Position numbers and translations under genes: made by a program
Notes under the pieces: generated by a model
Told to the model about the DNA's origin: nothing
Databases searched by the model: none
What the model saw: the letters and a program-made list of their open reading frames with translations, nothing else
Assembly (NCBI GenBank): GCA_051362555.1
Contig: CM120640.1
Span: 62,001 to 126,000 of the forward strand
DNA from: Lingula anatina
Taxonomy: Eukaryota; Animalia; Brachiopoda
DNA length: 64,000 nucleotides
Reading direction: 5' to 3'
Part shown: piece by piece, positions 48,212 through 62,540 of the stretch
Layout: each line of letters begins with the position of its first letter
Numbering within the stretch: position 1 is the first letter of the stretch

Positions 48212-50089
48212 CTAATTTGGCTGAGTGTCCATTTGGTTTTGACTGCCATTATCTGGAGATGCACTTGATGACCCTGACTGACTGCTGTCTAACTGATTGC
48301 TAGCTGAGACTGGCTGAGGGGGAAGATAGTCCTTGTCACTTGTGTCTTCACCATCTAATGTTTTTCGGCAAACTGGACAGGTTCCATGCTGTAATAGAAG
48401 TTTTTGACACATAAACATCTGGACATAATCATAAATTTCTGGACATAATCATAAACGTCTGAACATAATGGAGCAGTTGTCCAGATGAGGAGTTACATGT
48501 GCCTTACAGAAAAGTTTTCTCATTTCTACTGGTTTCTGAGTTTTCTAAATAACTTTCTAAATAACTTTTCTAACTTAACTTGTATGGATATTCTAAAGAC
48601 AGGTCATCACATGTTGTAACCCCAAGAAGTTTTATGGAGCTCACATGGTCAATCAGTTTTCAATTAAAAATCACATGTATTTTCTTACTGTTTTCAGGTA
48701 AATGTTTCTGTTTTTGTCTTGTAGTAAAGAGCATACATTTACTTTTTTTGACATCGGCTACCGTTTTATAATATTTTTCACATCCCAGCTTTGTTTCTGG
48801 TTTAGTTCAGATGTTGTTTTTGTGGCTACTGTCAATGTCGTATCATCTGCACTGATTTCACCATGTTCAGTGTTGAATGGGAGATCATTAATAAAGAGAA
48901 GGAACATAAGTGGCCCCAGGATGGGTCCTTGAGGCACTCCACAGGTGATGGGCATTGGATCACAAAGATGATTTCTAAATACAGTTTGTGTTTTTCTGGC
49001 CTTAAGTTTAGAGCTGAACCATATAACAGTTAAAGCAGCACACAGATACAATTTTAGTATCTTTAAAAGAAATTTACCAAACCAAATGCTTTCCAGAGAT
49101 CTATTAATACAACACCACTCATGAAGTTTTTATCTATAGCAGTTAGACTATTTCATAAAACAAAATATTTGCAGATTTTGATCAACCTACCATTTCTAGC
49201 CATCGTGTTATACAGGCACTGTGATAGTAGTGATTACAAGGTAATTTTCTAGCTTCTTCTTCAAGTGTAAAATCTTCCATGCAAACTGAACACTGCACAG
49301 TTTTATCTGGAAAAAAAATGCAATTAGTCCCTCAATTCACGTACAGCGGATGTGTGTGTGTGTATATATACCATAACCCATCTAAAGAAAATTACATATT
49401 ACATAATTAAACTAAAAAAACAAAATAAATATTACACTTTCACATAGTACTAAATTAAAGACACAAACAAAAAACAAAAATATCAGCTTTTCATTCCAGC
49501 TACACATCTTATAAAACTTGAAATAAGAGAAAAGATATAGCACATAAATATTACCTTCTTGTTTGTCCATAAAATGTACTTTTGATTTCTCAAGCAATTT
49601 TCACAACTTACCCACAAGATCTTGTGTAATGCTAACAGTGGGAATAGCAGCTATTTTTTCTGTAGAAGCTGGGGGCGGACCGACCCCTTCCAGCTGATTT
49701 AAAAGCTGTAAAAAAAGTGAACATGCCTTATTTGTAGTGAATGTGCAGCATTTGTGTGTATCATACCTTCACTTCATAATTTCACACCAGATCAAATTCA
49801 AAGAATACCGTTTCTCAAGTGCTTTCAAGATACATGAAAATAGCTATTGTAAAACATATTGCATGAAAATGAATAACAAATAGACTTAGAGTCTTGTATT
49901 ACCTGTGTGATGATAGCATCTAACCCTCCCGACCCCCAGGCATAATCCCCAGGGTTACCATGGATGACACCACTGAAATACAATAAGATACACTCTATAC
50001 TAGACCACAAATACCAGAGAATACAATTACATATATACAACCTGGGGTGCTTTGTTCTAAAATAATTGTATAGACTAAAACAACTGTGC

Positions 50090-50136
<47 letters not shown>

Positions 50137-53100
50137 CGTTATTATATACCATTTTAATGTAAGACTTACAATGGAACACCTCCTGCTAAAACTGCTTGTC
50201 CACCTAATAACCCTCCAAGAATTTGGTGAAGGATTCTGTAAATAAGAAAAATATAAAAACATAAGATTAACACCAGATATTGCAGATGTAAAAACATCAC
50301 ATATCCCTGCACTTTGCCACAATGTCAACTGCACCACTCCTAACTGATAATAATTATACTGGGACCCCACTCCTAACTATTGATAATTATATTGGGACAC
50401 CACTCCTAACAATTGATAATTATATTGGGACCCCACTCCTAACTATTGATAATTATACTGGGACACCACTCCTAACTATTGATAATTATACTTGGACACC
50501 ACTCCTAACTATTGATAATTATATTGGGACACCACTCCTAACTATTGATAATTATACTTGGACACCACTCCTAACTATTGATAATTATACTTGGACACCA
50601 CTCCTAACTATTGATAATTATATTGGGACACCACTCCTAACTATTGATAATTATACTTGGACACCATTCCTAACTATTGATAATTATACTTGGACACCAC
50701 TCCTAACTATTGATAATTATATTGGGACACCACTCCTAACTATTGATAATTATACTTGGACACCATTCCTAACTATTGATAATTATACTTGGACACCACT
50801 CCTAACTATTGATAATTATATTGGGACACCACTCCCAACTGATAATTATACTTGGACACCACTCCCAACTATTAATAATTATACTGGGACCCCACTCCTA
50901 ACTATTGATAATTATACTTGGACACCACTCCCAACTATTGATAATAATATAGGGACCCCACTCCCAACTATTAATAATTATACTGGGACACCACTCCCAA
51001 CTATTGATAATTATATAGGGACCCCACTCCCAACTATTGATAATTATACTGGGACACCACTCCCAACTATTGATAATTATACTGGGACCCCACTCCCAAC
51101 TTTTGATAATTATACTGGGCCACCACTCCCAACTATTGATAATTATACTGGGCCACCACTCCCAACTATTGATAATTATACTTGGACACCACTCCTAACT
51201 ATTGATAATTATATTGGGACCCCACTCCCAACTACTGATAATTATACTTGGACACCACTCCCAACTATTGATAAATTATATTGGGACCCCACTCCCAACT
51301 ATTGATAATTATATTGGGACACCACTTTCAACTATTGATAAATTATACTGGGACACCGCTCCCAACTACAGTCTGCGACGTTAGGCACTAGCCTAAGGCA
51401 ATTGCCCACCTAAAGTGGCACTGGGCTAGTAAAAAAGTTGAAATTTTATAAAGCACTAGCCCGAACGGGCTAGTTGAAATTTTGAGCCTTTTGTAACACT
51501 CAGTAAGATTTCAAAAATATAAGTCGCCAGTCTTCTTTGCCCCTGCCTTTGACGTTTCTAGATAGTATGATATGCCTCTCAGTTGAAAAAACTCACACCT
51601 TGCTCAAACTACTGAATATTGATTAGTTGCTATAAATAACTTCACTGTAGTTATTTATAGCAGCAGTCTGCCTGATCAGCGTGTCGGCATCTTTTTATTT
51701 GACCAGTTTGTTGTTAGGACTACAAATTGCTGTCAATCAAGTTACTGGATCAGACCGGAATTCCTTGGTACTAGCAACAGGTTTTGTCAAAACAACACTG
51801 TCTCCGAAGCAAGTGTAATGTATGCATTATCTCACAGAACATTTGGGTTAAGACCACTTAGCAGACTGAGGGGTGTAGTATTCTATTTCCTTTTTTGTTT
51901 AATTTTTTTTATTTATAATTTTAATATCCACGAGTTAATACATTTTCCTTTGCTTATTGCCTTTTAAAAACAATAAGACCCTGGCAGTTACATGTGACAT
52001 AAATACCCTATGAACTATTCTTGACAATGTGGGATAGTTGGGTTTATGCCATGGCTACCCCTCCACACTTTGTCCTGGTAAAGTCCTTGAAAAGTTGTTT
52101 TTACAAATATATAACCAAAAGAATTGTAACCAAAAAAATTGCCAAACGTTTGTTTAATTACCCTTACAGCACCTATGTATTTTAAATTAGAAGTGGCATT
52201 ATATACCGATGTAATTAGAAATAAATTGTTAGAAAAGAGCTATTGTCAATAAAAAGAAAAGGAATTAAAAAAAAAAAGATTTTGATTGTATATAAAATGG
52301 AAAGAAAGGTATTATAAAAATATGAAAAGTAAGGGTAACTATATTCAGTATTACATATTAAAAAAGGGAATTTTTTCAATATTAAATAATTAAATATATT
52401 TTAAATCGATTTTACCACCCCATCAACTGAAAATTAACCTGATTGACTTTGTTATTCACTTGCTCTACTTCTATAATAAGGTTTACAAGAAAGTACAGTA
52501 TGGTACCACAACTCTTTACAACATCTGCTTAAACTTTTTAAATGAATTATTTAAATTGGGCTAGTGTTTTTTGGTTCAGGCTAGTAAAGTTTGAGAGTCT
52601 GCTAGCCCGAAGGGCTAGTAGTCTAAAAAGTTTTTGGCACAGACTGCAACTATTGATAATTATATTGGGACCCCACTCCCAACTATTGATAATTATACTT
52701 GGACACCACTCCCAACTATTGATAATTATATTGGGACCCCACTCCCAACTATTGATAATTATATTGGGACACCACTCTCAACTATTGATAATTATACTGG
52801 GAAACCGCTCCCAACTATTGATAATTATACTGGGACACCACTCTCAACTATTGATAATTATACTGGGACACCACTGCCAACTATTGATAATTATACTGGG
52901 ACACCACTCCCAACTATTGATAATTATACTGGGACACCACTCCCAACTATTGATAATTATACTGGGACACCACTCCCAACTATTGATAATTATACTGGGA
53001 CACCACTCCCAACTATTGATAATTATATTGGGACGCCACTCCCAACTATTGATAATTGTACTGGGACACCACTCCCAACTATTGATAATTATATTGGGAC

Positions 53101-57861: not shown

Positions 57862-59453
57862 GGAAGTAATAAAAATTGTTCTTTATTTTCATGTTAAAAA
57901 TGTCCTTTTAGGTGGTGAAGGTGTTCGTCCATACTGGAAGCATTATTTCAGTGGTGCCAAAGGGATTATATTTGTTCTGGATAGTGCCTGCCCAGAATCT
58001 GATCTAGAGATAGTGAAGACAGAATTGAGTAATGCATTGGCCAACCCAACACTAGACAAGTTACCTTTACTGGTGTTAGCATGTCACCAAGAGAAAGATG
58101 GTGCTAGAAGCATTGAACAGGTAAAAATGTCACCCTTACATATATTGATATTAGGATTATAACATATTGTCCTTCAAGTACTTAGTAGTCAGGCTTGCAC
58201 CAACATGTCATAAACTTTATGAATGCAAAACTTCTTACAAGACTTGCATTAAAAATAAGACAGCAAAACTGTAAAATGTACAGGCATTTAACAGAAAATA
58301 ACTAAAAAAAGGTATTAGAACTGACACAGTTTGCCTTTTATGAAGTTTACCATATGGCAGTGCACTTTTAAAAAAATTGTCAATTTTGGTGTTATGTTAC
58401 ATAACACTAAGCAGTATAATCATCACCAATTTTTACATTCACCAAGAAGATTATGTTTTCACTTTTATTTGTCTTTCTGTTTGTAACAAGCCTTATACAA
58501 TGTTATGGATGGATTTTAATGAATTGTTTTAGTATTTGTTAGAAATGGACATATTTTAAGGTGATGAAAATTTAGTGGTGATAAGTTATCCAGATAGTTA
58601 TTTTTATCCAATAAATTTTTTGAGCTTTCGTCATCATTGTGAGACCTATTGTGCAATAAATTTGCTCTCAGCTACCAATATTTATCAGTGTATAGTCCTT
58701 GGAGGGGGTCTACACTCTGAGTGCTTTTTTGGTTAATTTTGTACTACAAAGAACATGGAACCTCAGAAAATGTAGCTAGCACAAGGCTTCTTACCCATGG
58801 GAGGTCAGAGACACACATTGCAAAAATGTAAAATTGTATTACTTCAGTAAAAAGACTCAAGTCAGACTGGTTTTCAATCTCAAGCTATATCTAAGTCCTA
58901 AAAGTCACTTTGGACAGTAAGTTTAAGGTTGTCTAATGGTTATCTACTTACTGTGTTTACTGCGAAAAGTGTGGAATTGATTTAGCAACAAGAAATGACA
59001 CAGGTGATGGCTGTTTGGGCAAAGAAAACATTCTGTACTTACTAGCATTTTAAAAGATTTTATTCCTTTGTACATGTTGCTTGATTAGATGAATTGTATA
59101 GCCATTATAAGTCTTGCATACATTATAATTATTATATTTCTGATTCAAAATCAACTGTGGGATTTTTTAATATACTGTACAATATGGTAGTTAAAACTAA
59201 ACATGGAACTGTGTCAGTATTAATATTTATGTAAATGCATCACTCTGAATTTCAGTTGAAAAAAGAGCTAGAGCTGGAGTTTCATGGTGAAGGGAGAGCA
59301 TGGCTGATACACCCCTGTAGCTTGAATGATCTCCGTGGAATCAAGGAAGGCTTTGAGAACTTTAACCAGTATCTGCTTGGAGAGAAATCGGTGGAGGGGG
59401 ATCAGACACCCAGAGAACAAGGACAATCAGAAGACATTCCAGGCAGAATTTAA
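56451..59453 (+). CDS. ARL15: ADP-ribosylation factor-like protein 15, 5 coding exons
   Basis: Exons 56451-56513, 57064-57208 (FRRLCCRSPPPPRPE..GLAKAGKS), 57541-57600 (FSIKA..LNVKEIG), 57912-58120 (VRPYWKHYF..IFVLDSA), 59256-59453 (WLIHPCSL..stop). The CC-PPP N-terminus and the KE(I/L)GG G3 variant are characteristic of ARL15. Confidence 0.92.
57295..57435 (+). repeat. Dispersed repeat, copy B
   Basis: Same blocks and orientation as 54175-54325. Confidence 0.65.
58430..58730 (+). mobile_element. Degenerate HINE/DINE-like element
   Basis: CCAAGAAGATTATGTTTTCAC..TGTTTG..ATGGATGGATTTTAATGAA..CTTGGAGGGGGTCTACACTCTGAGTGC layout; resembles 63710-64000. Confidence 0.5.
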
Positions 59454-59536
59454 ATCTGTGATACCTTATAATATAAGCTGTAGGCATTAAGCTTTTGCTG
59501 GGCCTCTCTCTCTGGTCACAACACATATTTAGTTTA

Positions 59537-61328
59537 CACTAGCGGGCCTGATTTGGTCTTAAAGTGCAATTTAAGACTAAAACTAGACTGAGGCGATCTT
59601 AAAACTTAAGGAGGGACTCTTAATTTGATCTTAAGACTAAAAACGAACTGAAAGTCCAGTGAGTAAGACTATAATTGGTCTGAAGTGGTAAAGCAATTAT
59701 CTCCCCTCACACATTCAGTCCAAACTTGGACTGGGGCTCCAGCCAGACAGCTGAAGATAGCAATCAAGTGGAGGGCCATTGTATGAGAGCATTGTATGTA
59801 GCAGAGACGAGCATTGAAGTGCACCTGAACAAGAGAGATAAAAAGAGGATGAAAAGTCAGGGATTGGTGTTTAAGAAGCCATATAACTTTGGTCGTCTAC
59901 AAAATTGGAAGCATTTCTGGGGCCTAAGAGATGGAATATCTTTTATTCGACATGTATTGTTTCCATCAAGACACAAACCTATAGGAAATGGAATCACATG
60001 GGAAACGGCAACATATAAAATAGAAAAAGAGTTACACGATATCTGATATTAAAATCATTAGTAACTTTTAATGAAGTAGCTTTAGCATTATTTTGAGATA
60101 AATGTGATGGATTACAAAAGAAGCAAATGTGGAGGAGCACAACTTCCCAGATTGAATTTTTATGTCAAGTGTAATAAGATGACCTTAGATTTTATCTTTT
60201 CTTTTAGAGGAACTGCTTGTTAGAATTTTGCGTAGAAAAGATGGCATTTCCAAGGGATTAATTATGACCAGTGTGACCCATTTTAAACTTATTTTAGAAA
60301 TAACAGTATAGTATATTAAATGTATGTCTTTTAGACCATTCTTTCTTCACTTCAGATAAAATGCAATTTTTGAGCAGTATTTATCTAAAAAGAATAGTAA
60401 TTTTCACCTACTCATTAGTTATTGTTAAACCTGCTCCTGCTATTGGATTTTTCATTTTAGGCCTTTTTAATCAAATACTTTTAGTTCTAATTGTTCACCA
60501 TAATGACTGTTTAAATGGCCACATCTGTTAATTGGGATTTTCATAATTTTCAAGGTCTGAATTGGAAACAAAAGTACCTTTATAGAATGTGCAGACAGTA
60601 ATGTTTACTTTCCAGCATTTTCAAATGAAAAAAATATACTTTTAAGAATGAAGTTACGTGCCTCAAGGACAGATCATAGGGTGTTAAAAGGAAAATCTAA
60701 TATCTAGACAGCAAAATTATGTAAAAGAAATACATTATTATTTGAAGTATTACCATGGCATCTCATCTCTCTATGAGTAGCAAAGGGTGGTCTCTTGTCA
60801 ACCAAGTGCTAATTGCCTGATTGATTAGGGCGATTCAGACACTATCTCAGATAATTTCTAAAGCAAGGAAAGACTTGGTTGTAGAAGTACTAGTGCAGCA
60901 TACTTTCAATGTTGTTTTGAATGAAATCTTTCTTTTTTCTTTCTTTTTTGATTTTGCTTTCTTGCTAAAGGGTGACTCAAAGAAAGAAAGAAAAAAGAAA
61001 GTAAGACTTCCTTCAAAAGCAAAAGTCAAGAAAAATATTGTCGCCTCAGACTAGTTTAGTCTTAAATTGCACTTTAAGACCAAATCAGGCCTGCTAGTCC
61101 ACTCTTTCTTTGAGTCCTGACAGAATGGTTGATTGAGGGAATGCACTATTTACTTAGTAGGTAAGTGTCACATTAACTCAGTTGTATCTTGTTTTAAAAA
61201 TTAAAATTACATTTCAGTTCGTTTTTAGTCTTAAGATCAAAGTAGGAGTCCCTCCTTAAGCTTTAAGATCGCCTCAGCCTAGTTTTAGTCTTAAATTGCA
61301 CTTTAAAACCAAATCAGGCCCACTAGTG
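59537..61328. mobile_element. Non-autonomous CACTA (EnSpm/CMC) transposon carrying host-gene cargo (Pack-CACTA)
   Basis: Termini CACTA...TAGTG; about 117-bp imperfect TIRs at 59537-59653 and 61212-61328; TTA on both sides (59534-59536, 61329-61331); repeated TAAGACTAAAA sub-motifs; no transposase ORF. Confidence 0.88.
59801..60046 (+). pseudogene. ZDHHC16: Captured 3' fragment of a ZDHHC16-like palmitoyltransferase, followed by probable 3' UTR sequence
   Basis: AETSIEVHLNKRDKKRMKSQGLVFKKPYNFGRLQNWKHFWG..RHVLFPSRHKPIGNGITW matches the ZDHHC16 C-terminus as I recall it (GETSIERHINK..VFRNPYNYG..NWK..LLPS.H.P.GNG.SW), including TTxE- and PaCCT-type motifs. No DHHC domain or upstream exons are nearby. 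Confidence 0.8.
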
Positions 61329-62216
61329 TTACTTACATGTCTTGTTGACAGTGGAAATATCTTGCTAGGAGATTGATAACTGTAAGGCACACGTTTTAGT
61401 TGTCAATAAGAATAGTAATAATTCATTTCTTAAACCCCCCCTACACATGCATCTCAGTGCTGTTTACATGTTTACACATGTCATTATGTACATGCATTTA
61501 AAGTTTTTTTTTGTGTGTGTGAATGACAATTAAGTAAGGAGAGAAATTCACAGTATTATTTCAGCAGTCTTTTAGTGAATCAGGGAAATTTAATTTTAGG
61601 GTGGTATCAAATATTAATAAAAATATATTGGTAAACAAGCTCCACGTATCACATCAGCTGATAGATATACCTTCTTTTTGTGCCATAAATGGTCAAAATT
61701 GCTCAGTCTTTTTTCAATTTAATAGTATATGATAGCACATGATGCTTATATTTACAGTATATATGTGCTAAATATAATGCACCAAAATTACTGTTTTGAA
61801 TTTAAGCACAATTTTTGTGAAAATTCCTTAGTTTAAACACTAATGTTTTTTGTATAATGTGTTTAAATTGGTGGATATATGGTGAAAAAATAAGGAAAAA
61901 AAGGGAAAGTGTTACAGCATACAAAATACTGTTTATTGTGCACTCAAACATAACTGAACTTAAAGATTGAGCATTTGTCCTATTGATGATTTAACTGCAT
62001 CTCATTTTGTAAAATTTTAATGTATTGTTGACATATATGTTGCTGTTTTGTTTAGAGCAATAGGAGTGACCTAATGCTTGAATTTTGTGCTACTTTTATT
62101 TAATGCAATATATATTTATCATGTCTACATAACATAAAATATAATTTGATATGTTATCAAACATGAATTGCAAGCCTAAGTAATATATTGTCAATACAAT
62201 AGATATGTCAATAGAT

Positions 62217-62540
62217 GGATATTATCAAAACATCTTACTTTTAGTACACAGATTACTGGTTAGGATATTATCAAAACATGTTACTTTTAGTACACAGATT
62301 ACTGGTTAGGATATTATCAAAACATGTTACTTTTAGTACACAGATTACTGGTTAGGATATTATCAAAACATGTTACTTTTAGTACACAGATTACTGGTTA
62401 GGATATTATCAAAACATCTTACTTTTAGTACACAGAGTACTGGTTAGGATATTATCAAAACATCTTACTTTTAGAGCATAGATTACTAGTTAGGATATTA
62501 TCAAAACATGTTACTTTTAGAGCATAGATTACTAGTTAGG
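62217..62540. repeat. 46-bp tandem repeat, 7 copies
   Basis: GGATATTATCAAAACATGTTACTTTTAGTACACAGATTACTGGTTA. Confidence 0.92.

Follow-up and report, generated by a model that had tools for sequence, protein, structure and literature searches.

A ZDHHC16 fragment of apparently spliced origin inside a putative non-autonomous CACTA-type element downstream of ARL15 in Lingula anatina

The window, i.e., the whole 64,000-nucleotide stretch of Lingula anatina DNA analysed here, carries the matched part of the last coding exon of ARL15 and, starting 80 bp past its stop codon, a TTA duplication which encloses a putative CACTA-type transposable element with a piece of ZDHHC16 inside it, ARL15 and this cargo lying on the same strand. 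The remainder of the window holds a multi-exon myosin gene (about 900-38900, minus strand) with RA and motor domains, which by its domain architecture we take to be myosin IX-like and whose introns are full of minisatellites, as well as exons of a RING-finger protein (48212-50400, minus strand), presumably RNF115/126-like, of which the tested exon had no curated Pfam match. Just 3' of the element lies a further short repeat (about 61405-61468) with high contig depth and loose ends at 61468, and positions 62171-62500 are made of a 46-bp tandem repeat with at least five near-identical units. The features of the locus are as follows.

59253-59453, plus strand: last coding exon of ARL15 (matched part) with its stop codon, 100% identical to L. 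anatina ARL15 residues 159-224
59534-59536, no strand: left target-site duplication TTA, from the sequence
59537-59653, plus strand: left 117-bp terminal inverted repeat (TIR) with CACTA end; family contigs break at 59536/59537
59654-59787, plus strand: left internal arm, ending in TATGAG (59782-59787), matched by many family contigs
59783-60046, plus strand: predicted open reading frame of 87 codons, starting at a transposon-derived ATG and continuing in frame into the ZDHHC16 tail
59788-59799, plus strand: 5' junction filler of 12 bases, repeating the 9-mer 59777-59785 of the transposon arm (sequence; contigs of X1 and X7)
59800-60046, plus strand: spliced ZDHHC16 coding tail with stop, starting mid-exon, residues 287-367 (protein match, contigs)
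60047-60762, plus strand: copy of the ZDHHC16 3' UTR, no poly(A), covered by parent DNA contigs and RNA reads
60763-60771, plus strand: 3' junction filler, nine bases of local micro-repeats, from the sequence
60772-61211, plus strand: right internal arm, consisting of family sequence and holding TATGAG again (60772-60777), a hairpin and an extra TIR copy (family contigs, sequence)
61212-61328, minus strand: right 117-bp TIR with TAGTG end; family contigs break at 61328
61329-61331, no strand: right target-site duplication TTA, from the sequence

The element proper spans 59537-61328 (1792 bp), the earlier span of 59534-61331 having counted in both copies of TTA. An earlier note on this DNA had reported CACTA...TAGTG ends, TIRs of about 117 bp and a TTA duplication, all of which are borne out. 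The TIR pair is identical at 111 of 117 positions, with six mismatches (blastn, E 2e-48), and a scan for CACT[AG]...[CT]AGTG ends combined with a 3-bp duplication and a terminal identity of at least 15/20 returned a single match in the 64-kb window, namely the element itself, and none in each of 20 shuffles. The right arm contains an additional copy of the TIR end, 58 bp long (61041-61098; 95% to the left TIR and 92% to the right TIR), next to an A/T-rich hairpin (60915-61018; z -3.45 for 60895-61215), and the region of the hairpin and the extra copy is skipped by some family members and common to others. Both hallmarks of CACTA/EnSpm (CMC) elements are present, CACTA...TAGTG termini within inverted repeats and a 3-bp target-site duplication, which supports a non-autonomous CACTA-type element, the superfamily label resting on ends and duplication. 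PIF/Harbinger, considered for its TWA duplication, was dropped because of the CACTA ends. The TIR motif had no match in metagenome contigs.

That the element belongs to a multicopy family was established with contigs of four public DNA runs (X1, X2, X6 and X7), taken from 21 listed runs and aligned to the window. At the left end, contigs break into unrelated flanks at 59536/59537 in all four runs and, at the right end, they break at 61328 in at least three of the four among the matches listed, with 8-19 contigs per match row and a flank agreement of 0.42-0.48. Positions 59537 and 61328 are therefore genuine termini, and the family to which they belong is multicopy. All four runs also contain contigs joining 59781-59783 directly to 60772-60779 and skipping about 990 bases, so that family members without cargo exist, in which the left arm runs straight into the right arm. 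A related subfamily has only the first 40 TIR bases in common (59537-59576) and then departs, in at least 9-13 contigs per run; the family is thus heterogeneous. At the site itself, X1, X2 and X6 have contigs that start in unique flank and extend into the TIR, at the left as well as at the right end. X1 agrees with the window at every letter of either flank; the window may stem from this run, which hence does not provide independent support.

Regarding the cargo, it comprises 963 bp (59800-60762), made of the last 81 codons of ZDHHC16 and 716 bp of 3' UTR. The stop-free segment at 59801-60046, described earlier as ZDHHC16-like, indeed corresponds to residues 287-367 of L. anatina ZDHHC16, with 79 of 81 amino acids identical, ZDHHC16 being the only match among seven candidate proteins scored. 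The earlier note had also described about 1 kb of UTR-like sequence: a ZDHHC16 3' UTR is present, but its length is 716 bp (60047-60762), and 60772-61328 is transposon. The cargo reading frame had no match in Pfam and PDB because the ZDHHC16 tail lies outside the DHHC domain, and the predicted 87-codon frame lacks the catalytic domain. We considered whether the cargo could be the true last exon of a local gene. No other ZDHHC16 exon occurs within the 64-kb window, no RNA loose ends suggestive of splicing into the cargo were found among the matches listed, and the parent gene is separate, with introns and other flanks; this possibility, which by the earlier note would have refuted its reading, was hence rejected.

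The absence of introns is the key evidence for an RNA origin. For the cargo alone, alignments were made with two DNA runs (X1 and X7) and two RNA runs (X12 and X15, the RNA runs being taken by species label). In both DNA runs, one contig diverges from the cargo after 59936, where it reads G and then a GTAAG donor, and a second one joins the cargo ahead of 59938, coming out of a pyrimidine-rich acceptor (...TTTCAG). The parent gene therefore has a GT-AG intron at 59937|59938 which is absent from the cargo, and a 61-nt intron-free bridge (59907-59967), with no other letters relative to the window, is found in both X1 and X7. Around 59866|59867, some pieces have their end at 59868 and others their start at 59866, and they are joined by a bridge of 57 nt and low depth; this is the length expected for an insertion that has three letters in common with its flanks, G ahead of it and GT behind it. 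This contig geometry suggests a second GT-AG intron of the parent at 59866|59867, the loose ends themselves not being among the matches listed. Relative to the protein, the first of these joins follows residue 308 (phase 0) and the join at 59937|59938 falls within residue 332 (phase 2). In vertebrate ZDHHC16, introns occupy about the same places as these two exon joins. With one intron loss seen directly and a second one probable, the data support that the cargo derives from spliced mRNA, as had been proposed from the lack of an intron over about 80 codons; the case that would have spoken against this proposal, a parent without intron in the segment, was looked at, and the parent intron lies inside the segment in both DNA runs.

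Both boundaries of the cargo are consistent with an mRNA template. Upstream of 59800, the same coding sequence continues in DNA (both runs) and in RNA (86 + 12 reads), hence the 5' end of the cargo is mid-exon. The AG at 59800-59801 was considered as a parent splice acceptor, which would suit capture at the DNA level, and rejected since parent DNA and RNA are coding upstream of it. At the other end, the parent sequence diverges from the cargo after 60762 (loose end in X1 and X7), where the parent continues with two A and then a T run. RNA depth in X12 drops from 45 to 16 and 7 across 60670-60771, so that the 3' end of the cargo likely lies at the distal polyadenylation site of the long mRNA. 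There is no A run after 60762, only the 9-base filler. Position 59937 is a further particularity: the parent has G, the last base of the upstream exon, where X1, X7 and the window all have T in the nested copy (R332I). By chance, such a substitution exactly at the proven exon join is expected in about 1-4% of cases.

Comparison with the cargo-free members reveals how the cargo sits in its carrier. No transposon sequence has been lost around it, and relative to these members the hexamer TATGAG is doubled (59782 and 60772). The cargo thus stands between two direct repeats of 6 bp that derive from the transposon, with a filler between repeat and cargo on both sides, and the 5' filler ends in a 4-nt microhomology, AGCA, common to the transposon and the mRNA. 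While a 6-mer repeat would arise with a chance of about 0.1 in a loose 15x15 window, this one counts because of its exact register relative to the cargo-free members. Left-junction contigs are found in X1 and X7, with no right-junction contig for X7 among the matches listed. No second cargo-bearing site appeared among the matches listed in the four DNA runs, in which contigs break within the arms. Junction-contig depths are close to flank depths (11.3 versus 10.1/11.8 in X1 and 152.6 versus 139.6/137.8 in X2), as for a single site, a weak indication given that depth is no copy number. For X6, a junction depth of 155.8 versus 75/50 in the flanks was examined as a sign of extra copies and rejected, as the contig shares words with the parent.

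The position of the element, 80 bp behind the ARL15 stop codon, makes it likely that it lies in the ARL15 3' UTR. The earlier note had called for a search for the empty TTA site. One flank contig of X7 ends at 59533 and carries 106 further letters, and the next piece listed starts at 61405. This is exactly the pattern that a contig across an empty site with a single TTA would give and points to an empty allele in this run, the joint itself not being among the matches listed. The right flank of X7 comprises two haplotypes (0 and 9 other letters) and the cargo junctions are also present, for which heterozygosity for the element is the simplest reading. A cargo-free element at the 59537 site was not seen, the contigs breaking inside the arms and not being phaseable. 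On the filled allele, ARL15 would obtain a 3' UTR and poly(A) signals from ZDHHC16 through read-through.

Sequence divergence indicates that the cargo is recent. Contigs of X1 have five listed differences from the cargo of the window, among them 59878, where the letter of the window is private; counting the junction base, cargo and X1 parent are about 0.5% apart (about 5/963 bases), and the majority reads of X12 differ from the cargo at 14 of 16 listed places (about 1.5%). L. anatina heterozygosity is given as 1.6% in the part of the genome report used here (PMC4595640). The X12 divergence is close to this value, the event thus falls within the depth of allelic variation, and the cargo insertion is likely very young and polymorphic. 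At 59878, the window has G (N312K), and T is found in all aligned DNA contigs, including the intron-free bridge, and in 199 of 217 X12 reads; this G is either a private allele or an assembly error, and N312K was rejected as a feature of the nested copy, every aligned public DNA contig having T. Another observation concerns 60471-60475 in the parent 3' UTR, where X12 reads (59 and 42) and X15 reads leave the cargo and X7 contigs break too. The loose ends are near inverted repeats of each other with a 5-base overlap, which likely reflects a small insertion with TIRs in part of the parent alleles, absent from the cargo and from X1.

Transcription of the nested copy is suggested by two lines of evidence. 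RNA reads run across the ends of the cargo stretch in 38 of 607 cases in X12 and 4 of 55 in X15; in the DNA runs, as many contigs overrun these ends as there are element-junction contigs (2 and 1), and the overrunning RNA reads thus appear to stem from the nested copy. All first mates are on the minus strand, corresponding to sense RNA, and none is antisense. In addition, the parent G at 59937 is missing from 41 of 179 X12 reads, the corresponding count at 59878, used as control, being 18 of 217 (Fisher p 6e-5); in X15, both reads at 59937 have G. Read-through from ARL15 would be a likelier source of these junction RNAs than a start inside the element.

A cargo that is spliced, 5'-truncated, ends near the mRNA end and is bracketed by a direct repeat in an intact carrier argues for reverse transcription into an existing element. 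With moderate confidence, we favour the view that the spliced and 5'-truncated tail of a ZDHHC16 mRNA was reverse-transcribed into the CACTA-type element already in place and has stayed at this one site. A staggered break would have opened inside the non-autonomous element behind the ARL15 stop codon, and the 3' end of the mRNA would have been copied into the break, the carrier keeping all of its sequence; a LINE-type reverse transcriptase or cDNA-patched break repair would have done this, two agents which are not separable here. Given the fillers, the microhomology and the absence of poly(A), cDNA-patched break repair or a LINE enzyme not copying the tail is somewhat favoured. Across a whole genome, the chance landing of a retrocopy in some small TIR element would not be improbable. 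Several points speak against nesting in place: poly(A), usual in LINE-1-type nested retrogenes as far as the pertinent part of the bat study goes (PMC4224331), is missing; X7, with no right junction listed, leaves room for a different copy; no cargo-free element was found at the site; and the change from G to T at the exon join is left unexplained. These same observations on the site and on X7 would suit a cDNA that entered a donor copy elsewhere, for instance during repair of a transposase-induced break, the loaded element then jumping into the ARL15 3' region. This course of events is possible, though on balance unlikely. It accords with the intact ends and target-site duplication of an element from a multicopy family, with the probable single-TTA empty allele in X7, by which the element insertion itself would be young, and with the AGCA microhomology and templated 5' filler, which resemble cDNA break repair in the sections of PMC4516963 considered. 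It is at odds with the lack of a second site among the matches listed and with junction depths fitting one site, whereas X7 is readable as a simple heterozygote from its right flank; moreover, divergence is 5% between the two TIRs and about 0.5% between cargo and parent, and in the consulted parts of PMC8277862 multicopy animal Pack-TIRs are only four exceptions (1.4%), the rest being single-locus. The earlier proposal of a mobilised or transposon-captured fragment is accordingly not supported so far, with no second loaded site among the matches listed and junctions that look like insertion into an existing element. The full scenario, in which the CACTA-type element took up spliced mRNA during its own break repair, jumped, and put a ZDHHC16 3' UTR and an 87-codon frame onto ARL15, where it would be segregating and expressed, appears rather doubtful. 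Such a mobile "retro-Pack-CACTA" would belong to a class that the filters of Pack-TIR surveys remove on purpose.

It is improbable that a ZDHHC16 retrocopy formed elsewhere was later copied into the element at the DNA level by gap filling. Such a course would account for the missing poly(A) and, to the extent that the relevant passages of two studies go, agrees with junction microhomology and filler being typical of gap filling (PMC8277862) and with the capture of pre-existing retrogenes by Helitrons (PMC4224331). At 59800 and 60762, however, only parent-type ends are listed, with one contig each in X1 and X7, and the depths of the intron-free bridges (4.1 and 8.6 in X1; 32.8 and 50.4 in X7) are about those of the element junctions (6.8 and 11.3 in X1; 30.2 in X7), which leaves little room for another retrocopy; the 3' end of the cargo near the end of RNA coverage also speaks against it. 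Capture at the DNA level, from an intronless parent or with later deletions, and an assembly artefact are together very improbable. Base 59878, present in no aligned public DNA contig, shows that the window holds at least one private letter, but a canonical parent intron lies inside the segment in both runs, which largely refutes DNA-level capture, and junction and bridge contigs occur in independent runs of different studies; flank-to-TIR contigs are present in X1, X2 and X6.

The locus brings together RNA-level duplication and a DNA transposon in a very young and likely still segregating case. The material for resolving the order of events is at hand, namely RNA, the parent, family members lacking the cargo and a likely empty allele. 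Should the loaded element be mobile, retrocopies can spread through CACTA-type elements in the same manner as through Helitrons. Without mobility, too, ARL15 has likely been given the 3' UTR of another gene, i.e., a natural test of UTR swapping. In the sections drawn on here, the main animal survey of TIR elements discarded intron-less cargos of multi-exon parents as retroduplicates (Tan et al., 2021, PMC8277862), so that such cargos do not enter its counts.

A literature search, with most subscription papers, Repbase reports and some supplements outside its scope, retrieved no description of the present element or of any CACTA element with a spliced cargo; PMC5753468, PMC13477047 and PMC13121700 contributed nothing further here. 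Gene-bearing TIR elements, presented earlier as rare in animals, are less rare than implied, with 370 in 100 genomes according to the accessed text of Tan et al. (2021, PMC8277862). Their carriers are mostly hAT and TcMariner, ARF6 in MER20 being one possibly retroposed case, and a term search of 12 supplement files for CACTA, En and Spm returned a table header only, the superfamily column being outside the search. On the same portions of that survey, the present locus resembles animal Pack-TIRs by a host exon and UTR held between the ends of one non-autonomous TIR element, by breakpoint microhomology, those elements being mostly single-copy, and by chimerism in a 3' UTR, e.g., an ERP44 piece in GTF2H5. 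It also falls within their range of size and identity (100-5000 bp of non-TE sequence, at least 90% to the parent), with 963 bp and about 98.5-99.5%, but differs by its CACTA-type carrier and its spliced cargo. Lacking the intron at 59937|59938, the cargo is not a DNA-level copy and, by the Pack-TIR definition as worded there, is a retroduplicate. Plant Pack-CACTA elements, in the excerpts of Catoni et al. (2019, PMC6379663) relied on here, share CACTA ends, a 3-bp duplication, non-autonomy and an internal host gene fragment; in contrast to the spliced ZDHHC16 cargo, theirs is chromosomal DNA and they were seen transposing, and their conserved terminal sequence is 26 bp versus a 117-bp TIR here. 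Chapaev3, as far as the cited portion of Zhang et al. (2014, PMC4079192) describes it, has similar CAC...GTG ends and a 3-bp TWA duplication, which TTA fits; Chapaev3 inserts between A and T, whereas the duplication here is flanked by T and C, and membership was rejected on this difference, seen at one site only.

Closer parallels involve RNA. RMDR, the cDNA-patched break repair reported in 2015 (PMC4516963, in the passages used), likewise inserts spliced mRNA pieces without poly(A) and with short junction microhomology, three features which the present insert appears to have, while its 3' end may be the natural mRNA end and no truncation. RMDR was described at CRISPR breaks in mouse zygotes and with internal mRNA pieces; here, the insert is a natural germ-line allele with a 3' end that is likely the mRNA end and with a 6-bp direct repeat. 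The nested retrogenes of bat Helitrons, for which carrier amplification to 118 copies has been shown (Thomas et al., 2014, PMC4224331, as excerpted), share a 5'-truncated and intron-free mRNA copy in a DNA transposon, a short direct repeat and "empty" members without cargo. Judged by what defines nested retrogenes, several exons are joined without introns (one join shown, one inferred) and TATGAG forms a duplication around the retrocopy, with cargo-free exemplars known from joints in four of four runs, but no poly(A) tail is present. The same excerpts set the bat case apart by its carrier, which here is a TIR element of CACTA type in a brachiopod, and by Helitron amplification, of which no counterpart appeared here among the matches listed. 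On the best reading, the locus is a ZDHHC16 retrocopy of recent date that lies within a non-autonomous element of CACTA type and represents a variant of what is known from bat Helitrons.
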